A stretch of DNA of 64,000 bases. Source: Acidimicrobiales bacterium. Its GTDB lineage: Bacteria; Actinomycetota; Acidimicrobiia; Acidimicrobiales; Aldehydirespiratoraceae. The stretch lies in assembly GCA_029263195.1 (NCBI GenBank), contig JAJCXX010000084.1, positions 65,713-129,712 on the forward strand, in the 5' to 3' direction. This document shows, piece after piece, positions 20,141 to 23,600 of this stretch (its first letter is position 1; each line of letters begins with the position of its first letter). The translations under genes were made by a program, and so were the position numbers. The notes under the pieces are model-generated. The model was given only the letters and a program-made list of their open reading frames with translations. It was not told the origin of the DNA and searched no databases.

Positions 20141-20317
20141 ATGAGGTTGAGCGCACCAACGAATCGGACCTTCTTCATGGCGTTCGCGCTGATCGTTCTC
20201 GGCGTTGCGGCTTGGGTCTCTCCAATCGGAGACGAAGTCTCGACCGACACAGCATTCTGGGCGGTCGCCGCTGGCGGTGGGCTGCTTGTGATCGGGAGTG
20301 TCTTCAATCGCGTTTGA
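20141..20317 (+). CDS. Small two-TM membrane protein (58 aa), absent from the ORF track
   Basis: SD AGGAGA, ATG; MRLSAPTNRTFFMAFALIVLGVAAWVSPIGDEVSTDTAFWAVAAGGGLLVIGSVFNRV. Confidence 0.7.
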   Translation: MRLSAPTNRTFFMAFALIVLGVAAWVSPIGDEVSTDTAFWAVAAGGGLLVIGSVFNRV

Positions 20318-21230
20318 CCGCTCCTGGCGTAGCGACCTCCGTTCGGGTCTGAGCGAGGAACGCTCCGCCTGAGACGATGACGATTCCTATGACGCCGAGA
20401 GCGCCGGGCCGTTCCCCGAGGAAGACCCACGCCAGCGCGGCGATTTGGATCAGCATGGTGTTGTTGATTGCGGATGACTCGACTGCCGCAAGCCGCCGTT
20501 GAGCGGTGTTCCACAGGGTGAACGCAATGGCGGTGTTCACGATGGCAAGCCATCCAATTATCAAGGCCGACTTGACCCCGAGATCGGGCAGGCCTTCCAC
20601 CCCCAATCCAATGGCAAGTAGGACCGCTGCCCCGATGGTCATGCTGACGGTGGTGACTACGAGGGGCGAAGCGTTGCCTTGTCGGTTCACGTGTCGTCCG
20701 AGCAAGGCCCCCGCGACGTTGGCGGTCAAGCCGGCGCTTGACGCGACCATACCGACCCAGGTTGCGCCGAGATCGCCTGAGAAATACACAGCCGCACCGC
20801 CCGCCACGAGCACTGCACCTATCAATTGACGGGCTGAGACCCTCTCACCGATCGACCAGCTCGAAAGCACCGCCACGAAGAATGCGGTCGGAGCGAGCAT
20901 CAGGCTCGAGGTCGCGGCCGGCTGTGCGTCGATCGCTACGAACTGGGCCCCCTGAGTGACGCTGAAATAGACAAGCCCCAGAATCACCAGCATCTTGATC
21001 GTTGATCTGTCGAGCTTGACGAACTGGTGACGACGCGATCGACTTGAAACGGTCCATCCCAGCAGCACCATCGCTGCAACCGTGAAACGCAAACCGGCGA
21101 AGGTGAGCGGTGGAAGCTCCTCATCGTCGAGTCCAATGCGGATCAGCACCCACGACGAACTCCACAACATCGTTACGAAGAGGGCCGTCCATACGGCGCG
21201 GGCATGGCTGGGACGATCGGCTTCGGGCAT
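20304..21230 (-). CDS. EamA/DMT family transporter (preceded by a riboswitch)
   Basis: LWSSSWVLIRIGL, PPLTFAGLRF, about 10 TM, FLGE. Confidence 0.88.
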   Translation of the reverse strand: MPEADRPSHARAVWTALFVTMLWSSSWVLIRIGLDDEELPPLTFAGLRFTVAAMVLLGWTVSSRSRRHQFVKLDRSTIKMLVILGLVYFSVTQGAQFVAIDAQPAATSSLMLAPTAFFVAVLSSWSIGERVSARQLIGAVLVAGGAAVYFSGDLGATWVGMVASSAGLTANVAGALLGRHVNRQGNASPLVVTTVSMTIGAAVLLAIGLGVEGLPDLGVKSALIIGWLAIVNTAIAFTLWNTAQRRLAAVESSAINNTMLIQIAALAWVFLGERPGALGVIGIVIVSGGAFLAQTRTEVATPGAVKRD

Positions 21231-21274
21231 CTGGAGCTTCCTGGGTCGGCACGCGTTCTACGGTGCCGATCTCA

Positions 21275-21370
21275 CTCCTCGAGGCTTTTGTCCCTTCAGA
21301 TGCACGCCGACTCTTCGAGGGCGCTGTGGCGCTCGGTCCTCTCCGTTGGCACGGCCGGATCCCTAGCCAC
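21275..21370 (-). ncRNA. ykkC-family riboswitch (guanidine-I-like, variant P3)
   Basis: GUGGC-UAGGGAUCCG..CCGU/ACGG stem..GGACCGAGC-GCCAC, a P2 hairpin, then GGGACAAAAGCCUCGAGGAG, matching the ykkC hallmarks CUAGGGUUCCG, CCGAG and GGGAYAAAAGCC. Confidence 0.75.
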
Positions 21371-21446
21371 CGATGTCGATCGGTTGCCGGTCACTCTAGA
21401 AACGAATGCGGAACCTGTCGAGCAGAAGGGAATCAGCGCGGCCGGC

Positions 21447-23600
21447 TCACCGGTGCGCCCGGGACCGTTCCCTTGCTCTGCGAGGAGAAGACGTGGCGCC
21501 CTGGAGCCAGCGTTGTTCGAACTCGTCGGCGGCAACGGCTTTCCCGAACCAGTAGCCCTGTGCGTTCGAGGCACCGAGCTCTTGAAGCGTGGTCGCGTCC
21601 TCTTCGGTTTCGACACCCTCAGCCACAACTATTCGGCCAAAGGCGGTTGACATCTGGATCACGGCCCCGACGAGCGAGCGAAGTTCCTCGAGGTCGGAGA
21701 TTCCGCTGACGAAGCTTCGGTCGATCTTAATGACGTCGACATCGAGTGTGTTCATGAGGTGCAGCGATGAGTAGCCAGTTCCGAAGTCGTCGAGGGCGAT
21801 GCTTATTCCGATATCTCGGAGATAGTGGAGCTTGCCGTCGATGGGCTGCTTGAACATCGCCGTCTCGGTCAGTTCGAGACAGAGGTGTTGTGGTGCTGCT
21901 CCGGAGCGCGCCAGTGCGGCTTCGATGTCGCCGACGAAGTTGGTGAGTGCGAGCTGGTGAGCGGAGACGTTCACTGAGATCCTGAATGCGTCGACACCGG
22001 CGAACTGGTTGCGCCATCGGGTCGAGTCCCGCAGCGCGATGTCGAGTACCTCCGCGCCGAGGGGGACGATGAGTCCGGTGTGTTCGGCGACATCGATGAA
22101 TTCGGCCGGTGAGAGTAGCCCTCGCTCGGGGTGGCGCCAGCGCACCAGCGCTTCGGCTCCGATGACTGTTCGGTGCTCGAGATCGACAATGGGCTGGTAG
22201 TGGACTTCGAACTGTCCGGTGTCGATGGCGCCTCGGAGGTCCTCGGCGATCTGATTTCGTCGGGTCGCGTCGTCGAGAAGGGTCTCCTTGAAGATCTCGC
22301 TCCGGTTGCCTCCTTCGGTCTTGGCGGCGTACATGGCAAGATCCGCTTGGCGAATCAGGTCCGCAGCGCTCTCGGTGCCGTCGATTGCCAATGCGATCCC
22401 GGCGCTCGCGGTGAGTTGTGTCGCGTGGCCTGCGATCTGGAGGGGCTTGTTGATTGCTGTGAGGAAGCGCTCGGCGAGCTCGGTTGATGCGGCCGTGGCG
22501 TTTGGTGCGACGATGACGAACTCGTCACCGTCGAGTCGACAGGCGGTGTCGGTCTCTCTCAGACACGATCGGATCCGCTCAGCAATGATCACGAGTGCTT
22601 CGTCTCCGCCGGAGTGCCCGAGGGCGTCATTGAGATCCTTGAATCGATCGAGATCCAACAAGATCACGGTGAATTGGTCAGCCGGTCGTCGGCGCAGTTG
22701 TGACATTGCAACGTCCAAGCATTGCTGAAGGGTGGCGCGGTTTCCGAGTCCGGTCAGTTGATCTTGGTAGGCGTGACGGGTGAGTGTGGCTTCACGATCG
22801 CGCAACGCGTCAGCCATCGAGTTGAACGACGACGCGACGTCTACGATTTCTGCCGGGCCCTGGAGCGCTACGAGGAAGCTCTGCTCTCCGTTGGCGATGC
22901 GAGTCGCTCCGACACGGAGTTCGTCCAGTGTCGCGGCCAGGCTCTGAGCCAGCTTCTCCATCAGGAGACCTGATGCGAATAGGCCAATCAATGCAACGGC
23001 GATCGCCAATCGCTCGGTGGTGCGGCGTTGGGACACGCCCTGTTCGGTCTCTTCGATGGATTCCAGGTGCGAGAGCTCCGCAGTTGTCTCAAGGTCGGCC
23101 GCGGCCGATGACATGGCATCAAAAGTATTCGCGATGTGAAGGTCGCGCGTGTCGAGATCCGGGGCACGGACCGCCAACGCGAGCTCCGAGCGGACTTGGG
23201 TCCACTCGTCGCGGGCCCGATTGAAGGTGACCAGCTCTGCGTCATCATGTACGTGCGATCCCACGGCCGCTAGTGCTGCATCAATCGCAGCGATCTCGGA
23301 CTCGAGCGACGACAGTTGGGCGGACAGCGTGGTTGCGGATTGGCTGGTCATGTTGGAGATGTCCGCCATAGTTCGGTTGATCGAAGATGCCGCCTTTAGG
23401 AGCGGAATCGTCTCGTCGACCTGTTCGTCGTGAGCCTTGTCAACCGTGGAGGCCGACGATCTCCCGCCCCACATCATCGCAGCGATGACGACAACCACCG
23501 ATACCAAAACGACGAAGCCGACGCCCCAGATGCGAGCTGTAACGGATCCGTTCCGCCAACGCGTGTGTCTGCTCGTAGTCGAGGTGGCCCGCGCTTCCAT
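21447..23600 (-). CDS. Membrane HAMP-GGDEF-EAL protein (DGDEF variant)
   Basis: 2 TM, HAMP, DQLTGLGNR, RLDGDEF, AEALVRW, DDFGTGYSSL, AEGVE. Confidence 0.92.
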   Translation of the reverse strand: MEARATSTTSRHTRWRNGSVTARIWGVGFVVLVSVVVVIAAMMWGGRSSASTVDKAHDEQVDETIPLLKAASSINRTMADISNMTSQSATTLSAQLSSLESEIAAIDAALAAVGSHVHDDAELVTFNRARDEWTQVRSELALAVRAPDLDTRDLHIANTFDAMSSAAADLETTAELSHLESIEETEQGVSQRRTTERLAIAVALIGLFASGLLMEKLAQSLAATLDELRVGATRIANGEQSFLVALQGPAEIVDVASSFNSMADALRDREATLTRHAYQDQLTGLGNRATLQQCLDVAMSQLRRRPADQFTVILLDLDRFKDLNDALGHSGGDEALVIIAERIRSCLRETDTACRLDGDEFVIVAPNATAASTELAERFLTAINKPLQIAGHATQLTASAGIALAIDGTESAADLIRQADLAMYAAKTEGGNRSEIFKETLLDDATRRNQIAEDLRGAIDTGQFEVHYQPIVDLEHRTVIGAEALVRWRHPERGLLSPAEFIDVAEHTGLIVPLGAEVLDIALRDSTRWRNQFAGVDAFRISVNVSAHQLALTNFVGDIEAALARSGAAPQHLCLELTETAMFKQPIDGKLHYLRDIGISIALDDFGTGYSSLHLMNTLDVDVIKIDRSFVSGISDLEELRSLVGAVIQMSTAFGRIVVAEGVETEEDATTLQELGASNAQGYWFGKAVAADEFEQRWLQGATSSPRRARERSRAHR

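Follow-up and report, generated by a model that had tools for sequence, protein, structure and literature searches.

A candidate non-guanidine ykkC riboswitch in the leader of an EamA transporter gene from an Acidimicrobiales bacterium

We examined a 64,000-nucleotide stretch of an Acidimicrobiales genome (assembly GCA_029263195.1, contig JAJCXX010000084.1, positions 65,713 to 129,712), which we call the window, and within it the 5' leader of the mRNA for an EamA/DMT transporter (drug/metabolite transporter superfamily) on the minus strand. We propose that this leader is a candidate ykkC riboswitch of the non-guanidine kind (subtype 2), and that it lies within the orphan subtype 2d or is its closest sister; we put the probability of this reading at about 0.72. 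The RNA is probably a fresh member of an already described orphan class, and not a new class. An initial annotation, made from the sequence without database searches, had called it an unassigned ykkC variant, possibly with a new ligand. The class is indeed still an orphan in the literature that we searched, but the novelty was overstated, as subtype 2d had already been described (PMC7266159, PMC5912903, and PMC8457001).

Family membership, covariation, and distribution

The motifs listed in the initial annotation (P1, the internal-loop core, the hairpins, P2, P3, the Shine-Dalgarno or SD sequence, and the ATG) are all present on the minus strand where it had put them (Table 1). Together they show the ykkC architecture: the P1/P1a/P1b, P2, and P3 hairpins, the internal-loop core, and an A-rich P3 loop. 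The ykkC fold is a textbook scaffold with several specificities, namely guanidine, guanosine tetraphosphate (ppGpp), phosphoribosyl pyrophosphate (PRPP), and nucleoside diphosphates.

When we compared the window with Rfam, no family was reported at gathering scores. Guanidine-I (RF00442) was the best and only meaningful match of the leader: it aligned over all 107 model positions with 32.7 bits (E = 2.5e-4, 351 nt searched), which is under its cut-off of 63 bits. In a whole-genome scan (E = 6.2e-4), this was the sole such match in the 3.63-Mb assembly. We also ran RF00442 on 13 members of the class described below. None of the 13 reached 63 bits; 12 scored 31.7–55.7 bits and one had no match at E = 0.1, while two true guanidine-I RNAs scored 76 and 84 bits. 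Because all of the tested members are under the cut-off, Rfam-based annotation misses this branch.

Folding 176 nt of the single sequence gave an unremarkable result (z = -1.55) that missed the structure of the family, and our case is therefore built on comparison. At the DNA level, 41 related genomes yielded one close copy (95% identity) and two short matches by chance; this search was too insensitive and was superseded by protein-anchored loci and covariance models. Scanning species-representative genomes with the transporter as the anchor gave 80 loci that encode relatives of it (42–86% identity), and these loci are labelled Acidimicrobiia, Ilumatobacter, Chloroflexota, Thermotogae, Bipolaricaulota, Acidobacteriota, Fraserbacteria, and others. 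In a motif scan, 41 of the 80 loci had both core motifs upstream with the correct spacing.

We aligned these 41 sequences and the window with MAFFT. Across the 42 sequences, 91.5% of the cells in a ykkC-style structure can pair, compared to at most 49.1% if the partners are slid. Both sides have changed in 14 of the 28 pairs, versus 7.7 ± 1.4 in shuffled alignments, and none of 500 shuffles reached 14. A covariance-model-based alignment of 51 distinct sequences, which is biased towards its own model, gave 92.1% paired cells and 19 two-sided pairs (versus 10.1 ± 1.5). The covariation among homologous leaders that the initial annotation had proposed to look for is thus present. In the 42-homologue alignment, P1 is paired in 99.5% of cells, with two pairs changed on both sides, and the UAGGG of the 5' core is constant. 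Every pair of P2 has changed on both sides among relatives, in both alignments, and one pair in the lower stem of P3 is C-G in 30 homologues, U-A in 5, and U-G in 4.

[quoted passage not shown] The initial annotation had suggested that a 5' GAUC could pair with a 3' GAUC, as in subtype-2 RNAs. This pairing is real and longer than was proposed, CCGAUC (21383-21378) with GAUCGG (21271-21266), and RNAalifold, when given the 42 homologues, predicted both P0 and P1 unprompted. Across the family, P0 has 7 base pairs, with 88% of cells paired and two-sided changes in 4/7 pairs (MAFFT) or 5/7 pairs (covariance-model-based alignment). One position has C-G in 28 sequences and U-A in 10, and two others alternate between G-C and A-U and between A-U and G-C. 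These compensatory changes bear out the idea of a subtype-2-like terminal helix.

To follow the RNA, we built a covariance model (R1) from the 42-sequence alignment. With R1, 49 of the 80 orthologue loci were seen to have the RNA upstream of the transporter gene and on its coding strand (73.6–127 bits; the window, which is in the training set, scored 97.7). Conservation upstream of orthologues, whose absence would have counted against the initial annotation, is therefore seen, and the RNA probably controls the EamA/DMT transporter, as had been proposed. Since R1 contained the window, we built a second model (R2) from 24 sequences, leaving out the window and the whole subgroup to which it belongs (subgroup A, see below). 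R2 gave the window 65.8 bits (E = 3.2e-18) and the other members of subgroup A 49–80 bits. The same model gave 23–36 bits to four guanidine-I RNAs, 41–44 bits to two PRPP-like RNAs (top score 44.3), and 34–44.5 bits to two RNAs that precede phn_DUF6-like genes. By this score, the window is clearly on the side of the class.

Scans of whole genomes with R1, without a protein as bait, gave a similar association. In a sample of Acidimicrobiia, 8 of 151 genomes had matches. Seven of these (94–124 bits, one per genome) lie 28–44 nt before an orthologue of the transporter, and the eighth (44.8 bits) is a textbook guanidine-I RNA with a U-tract terminator. In a sample of Actinomycetota, 10 of 151 genomes had matches; this tally counts the unpublished genome G671, whose locus was left out of the analysis. 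The four Actinomycetota matches of at least 81 bits are the window, two RNAs before an EamA orthologue, and the locus L152. Over these scans, 8/8 matches of at least 94 bits precede an orthologue, one per genome. In a sample of Chloroflexota, 16 of 151 genomes had matches, of which only one reached 73 bits or more. Among the Chloroflexota matches that we inspected, some are PRPP-like (such as L101, before purS/purL), some are guanidine-I, and a few are divergent relatives. One guanidine-I RNA from Chloroflexota that we used as a control (L108) precedes a gene for an NMT1-type binding protein.

Overall, at least 50 genomes have an RNA of this class; they belong to Acidimicrobiia, Chloroflexota, and, as labelled, Thermotogae, Bipolaricaulota, Acidobacteriota, and Fraserbacteria. 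Among uncultured Acidimicrobiia and Chloroflexota, the branch is widespread. It follows a single clade of transporters, with no other co-regulated gene. Besides the transporter, we found no conserved neighbour across the family, and, apart from the transporter and the frames that shadow it, gene clusters are shared only within one closely related group of genomes. As the transporter is the sole conserved neighbour, the regulated unit is the transporter gene alone.

The class consists of two subgroups that differ jointly in the 5' linker, the 5' strand of P3, and the 3' tail, and that have the same transporter downstream. In the window, the distinguishing segments are 21371-21377, 21295-21301, and 21272-21278 (minus strand), and they place it in subgroup A, the smaller of the two. 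The joint change suggests that these three segments may be in contact.

The RNA at L152 (774-1627) is a clear member of the class (R1 81 bits, R2 79 bits), and it precedes a 221-aa open reading frame that is not EamA. This protein has a weak match to MFS_1 (E = 2.7e-6, below the Pfam cut-off). RNAs of this class may control a second family of transporters here.

Subtype and candidate ligands

According to published work, one position by itself sorts the ykkC RNAs: it is an adenosine in guanidine-I and a pyrimidine in all of the reported subtype-2 RNAs (PMC8457001). The sorting adenosine has been numbered A46 (Reiss), A38 (Battaglia), or A55 (Burkholderia). At this marker, the window (21331) and all 51 class sequences, as read from the alignment rows, have C, and all four guanidine-I controls have A. 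Another general feature of subtype 2, described for subtypes 2a and 2b and shared by the window RNA, is the P0 formed by conserved extensions at the 5' and 3' ends. The covariance-model matches, the covariation, and the C at 21331 uphold the view of the initial annotation that this is a variant on the ykkC scaffold and not a normal guanidine-I RNA.

Subtype 2d was described upstream of EamA (formerly phn_DUF6) and TauE transporters, with an orphan ligand that the authors guessed to be a small, charged, toxic compound (PMC7266159; PMC5912903). It was also called the most guanidine-I-like subtype (eLife 2018, PMC5912903), and a 2021 paper still has it as an orphan subtype without a structure (PMC8457001). 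In the literature that we searched, which covers few subscription journals, we found no later report of a ligand for 2d or for EamA-linked ykkC RNAs, which makes these variants, in that literature, the one branch of ykkC still to be solved. We compared the window with 2d by its written description. It shares the ykkC scaffold, the pyrimidine at the marker, the location upstream of EamA-annotated DMT transporters, and the orphan ligand. The window RNA thus agrees with 2d as defined in print, and our two reservations are the type of transporter and the low R1 scores of the RNAs that are linked to phn_DUF6. We rate its membership in the published subtype 2d at roughly two in three.

The reservations bear on a distinctly less likely alternative, that the RNA represents a separate ykkC subtype, sister to 2d, which is tied to a 2A78-like clade of EamA proteins and has a different ligand from the 2d RNAs linked to phn_DUF6 or TauE. 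The transporter in the window does belong to a distinct clade. Its best match in NCBIfam is TIGR00950 (2A78; E = 1.7e-21), and it has no match to TIGR03340 (phn_DUF6) up to E = 10, whereas the genes after the RNAs at L109 and L100 match TIGR03340 at 1.4e-32 and 5.9e-20. The window transporter and a phn_DUF6-like protein are barely alignable (E = 0.005 over 89 aa). The RNAs at L100 and L109 score 53 and 42 bits with R1, versus at least 73.6 bits for class members. A scan for phn_DUF6-like loci tallied 177 of 401 genomes (counting the unpublished genome G421), and none of the 30 best such loci in a Chloroflexota sample was matched by R1, even at E = 1. Also, the class has conserved linkers and a covarying P0, and its P0 and 3' tail resemble PRPP-like RNAs, unlike the guanidine-I likeness that was reported for 2d (PMC5912903). 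On the other hand, the signature of P3 is common to the class and to L100 and L109, and is absent from guanidine-I and PRPP-like RNAs. A carrier of the RNA that has been cultured and is labelled Ilumatobacter nonamiensis (L010) has a RefSeq-style accession, so the earlier searches could probably have covered it. The comparison to the 2d consensus is by description only. If the RNA is not 2d but a further subtype with a small-molecule ligand of its own, ykkC would gain a sixth specificity, and the transporter would point to an exported metabolite that has so far gone unrecognised.

The differences from 2d weigh against our preferred reading, and so do several other results. The score with RF00442 is 32.7 bits, compared to a gathering score of 63. 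Among the 80 orthologues, 31 (for example at L016, L021, and L023) do without the RNA; near these 31 genes we found no Rfam family at gathering scores and no R1 match above 18.9 bits, and the similarity of their upstream regions is restricted to close relatives. R2 is an imperfect classifier, as the weak members L065 and L010 score 40.9 and 49.4 bits and a PRPP-like RNA scores 44.3. A member-like RNA at L099 (467-1627; 61 bits), which has P0 and lies before an orthologue of the window transporter, has A instead of C at the subtype marker, which is the sole such case that we saw. The hairpin downstream of the aptamer in the window has no U-tract and no terminator-like site, and it leaves the SD sequence unpaired.

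We think it rather unlikely that the aptamer binds a phosphorylated, nucleotide-like ligand (of the ppGpp, PRPP, or nucleoside diphosphate type) and that the transporter responds to such a signal. Like the RNAs for PRPP (2b) and ppGpp (2a), the window RNA has the pyrimidine marker and a P0 that is formed from the 5' and 3' ends, which gives a four-way junction, and the 3' strand of P0 doubles as a strand of the expression platform. It also has a UAGG-like junction before the 3' strand of P0, as in PRPP-like RNAs, and papers tie P0 to the recognition of larger polyanionic ligands. But both strands of P3 and the nucleotides of the tail differ, and PRPP-like RNAs reach just 41–50 bits with the class models. 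The genes differ as well: 2a and 2b RNAs precede genes for the biosynthesis of purines, branched-chain amino acids, or glutamate (the PRPP-like RNAs that we inspected precede purS/purL), while this class precedes only transporters (EamA and the one weak MFS case), and never purine, branched-chain amino acid, or NUDIX genes.

It is quite improbable that the leader is a divergent but functional guanidine-I riboswitch that switches on an EamA-type guanidine exporter. Exporters of the DMT superfamily (SMR/Gdx) are the classic targets of guanidine-I. The window RNA resembles guanidine-I in its three-hairpin architecture, its internal-loop core, its A-rich P3 loop, and its full-length alignment to the model, and it is probably an ON switch for a DMT-superfamily exporter as well. 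As described above, Guanidine-I is also its only meaningful match in Rfam. In the guanidine-I RNA of D. dadantii, the guanines G67, G68, G84, and G85 in the S-turn of P3 hold the guanidinium, and the G85A substitution abolished guanidine binding. In the RF00442 alignment, the equivalents of G68 and G85 in the window are both A, and there is a 2-nt insertion in the 5' strand, although this depends on the alignment. The initial annotation was right that P3 is unlike that of canonical guanidine-I: J2/3 and P3 of the window stand where guanidine-I has ACGG...GGGAG, and the longer 5' strand makes a regular lower stem possible. Also, guanidine-I RNAs precede genes for guanidine carboxylase, SMR/Gdx, or NMT1-type ABC transporters; no such gene is downstream of the window RNA, and the strong matches to the class all precede an EamA orthologue. 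The C at the marker, the change of G68 and G85 to A, the remodelled base of P3, and the scores of the class members below the Rfam cut-off make normal guanidine sensing by the window RNA unlikely, and the extra P0 is a further difference. The published subtype-2 RNAs that were tested do not bind guanidine (PMC7266159).

At the locus L074 (559-1172), an SMR gene (PF00893, E = 5.4e-20) follows a Guanidine-III riboswitch (RF01763; 52.6 bits, cut-off 36) at 886-947 on the minus strand. Back to back with this unit, about 105 nt away, are a variant ykkC RNA (plus strand, 1052-1172) and the EamA gene that it precedes. The arrangement may indicate a guanidine-related substrate and counts in favour of guanidine sensing, or it may be just a cluster of exporters; this is a single case, and a second guanidine sensor beside the first would be redundant.

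Least probable of all is that the leader does not sense a metabolite and is instead a protein-bound structure or a stabiliser of the mRNA: many orthologues do without the RNA, but the leader has the complete core of tertiary contacts from a scaffold that binds small ligands in its characterised members, it has the mutually exclusive P0 and hairpin that are typical of riboswitch expression platforms, and it is conserved across phyla where no neighbouring protein gene is.

Our analysis would narrow the search for the ligand to the substrate of one family of putative exporters and supplies many natural variants of the RNA. The window contributes a well-defined example, and its mapped boundaries include P0 and a likely start of transcription just before P0.

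Expression platform and proposed mechanism

In the window, four nucleotides of the 3' strand of P0 (21269-21266) double as the 5' arm of the hairpin that follows. This conflict is general in the class: in 47 of 50 members, at least 5 of the 7 nucleotides in the 3' strand of P0 are taken up into the hairpin, and the median stability of the members' hairpins is about -17 kcal/mol. Because the hairpin shares the 3' strand of P0, the two structures are mutually exclusive.

The hairpin occurs in two layouts. In 5 of the 50 members, none of which are labelled Acidimicrobiia, it is followed by a U-rich tail, as in an intrinsic terminator. In 33 of the 50, the window among them, there is no U-tract, and an SD-like motif is located between -3 and +6 nt from the 3' end of the hairpin; in the window, the hairpin ends 3 nt ahead of the SD sequence.

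We propose that the ligand, which is probably the substrate of the transporter or a precursor of it, would bind at the meeting point of P0, P3, and the internal loop. Binding would stabilise P0 and so keep its 3' strand out of the downstream hairpin, and without ligand the hairpin would form. In some lineages, the hairpin would be an intrinsic terminator that is averted by the ligand-stabilised P0. For the genome of the window, we infer a different read-out, in which the hairpin, directly adjacent to the ribosome-binding site, would either impede initiation or stop transcription without a U-tract. Both the terminator layout and the SD layout predict a ligand-induced ON switch, here for a putative exporter, and ON-switch behaviour has been published for other ykkC subtypes. 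The pairing conflict itself is seen in the sequences, while a P0 that is favoured by the ligand, and a hairpin that blocks initiation or transcription in the lineage of the window, would be the parts of the mechanism that we add to it.

The leader has one promoter-like site in 21150-21550, compared to 0.0 expected from 50 shuffles; this is a match to the consensus only. The TAGAGT -10-like box of the initial annotation is part of this site. If the site is used, we infer that the transcript would start a few nucleotides 5' of CCGAUC, the 5' strand of P0.

We considered two other pairings and dropped both. The conserved CACCUC in P3 could act as an anti-SD, and the 5' linker and P1 could pair with the 5' strand of P3; each seemed possible by eye, with only one-sided changes behind them.

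Leader features, flanking genes, and other loci

Table 1. Features of the leader RNA and of the adjacent genes, with positions in the window.
Feature	Position	Strand	Basis or remark
Promoter-like site TCGACA (-35), 17-nt spacer, TAGAGT (-10)	21393..21421	-	9/12 consensus matches
TAGAGT -10-like box	21398-21393	-	part of TCGACA-17-TAGAGT
Whole aptamer, order P0-P1-P1a/P1b-P2-P3-P0	21263..21388	-	class covariance models R1 and R2; 126 nt
RF00442 match	21275-21377	-	32.7 bits
P0 5' strand CCGAUC	21378..21383	-	sequence, RNAalifold, covariation
5' linker P0-P1, GACAUCG	21371..21377	-	alignments; sequence typical of subgroup A (subgroup B: GAAGG)
P1 5' strand GUGGC	21366..21370	-	sequence, RF00442 alignment
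Internal-loop core, 5' side, UAGGGAUCCG	21356..21365	-	aligns to Rfam consensus
P1b hairpin CCGU-GCCA-ACGG	21343..21354	-	sequence; length and sequence vary among relatives
Internal-loop core, 3' side, AGAGGACCGAGC	21331..21342	-	aligns to CCGAGAG of RF00442
Core motif GGACCGAGC	21339-21331	-	sequence, inside the 3' core
C21331, subtype marker, counterpart of the conserved guanidine-I A	21331	-	RF00442 alignment
P1 3' strand GCCAC	21326..21330	-	sequence, covariation
P2 hairpin GCGCC (21324-21320) / GGCGU (21308-21304)	21304..21324	-	sequence, covariation
J2/3 and P3: GCA, lower stem UCU/GGA, internal loop, upper GG/CC, loop ACAAAAG	21275..21303	-	
P0 3' strand GAUCGG	21266..21271	-	sequence, RNAalifold, covariation
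Competing hairpin UCGGCAC (21269-21263) / GUGCCGA (21252-21246)	21246..21269	-	about -16 kcal/mol for the segment
Shine-Dalgarno-like AGGAAG	21237..21242	-	6 nt before ATG
Start codon ATG	21230	-	sequence
EamA/DMT transporter gene, 308 aa, two EamA repeats	20304..21230	-	EamA match, E = 3.3e-32
HAMP-GGDEF-EAL protein, 726 aa	16993-19173	+	convergent gene downstream
HAMP-GGDEF-EAL protein, 720 aa	21447-23609	-	same-strand gene upstream

The window transporter has no sequence match to solved structures at E = 0.01, and it is 50% identical to an orthologue from Chloroflexota. The riboswitch-EamA unit is flanked by two paralogous HAMP-GGDEF-EAL genes.

Other RNAs lie near the phn_DUF6-like gene at L100. 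This gene, a short open reading frame, has a divergent ykkC-variant RNA in front of it and an FMN riboswitch (L100, 2196-2343; RF00050, 84.7 bits) directly 3' of it. A second divergent RNA in the same genome (L118, 1501-3127) scores 35.8 bits and has P0; it is upstream of a 479-aa open frame without a Pfam match.

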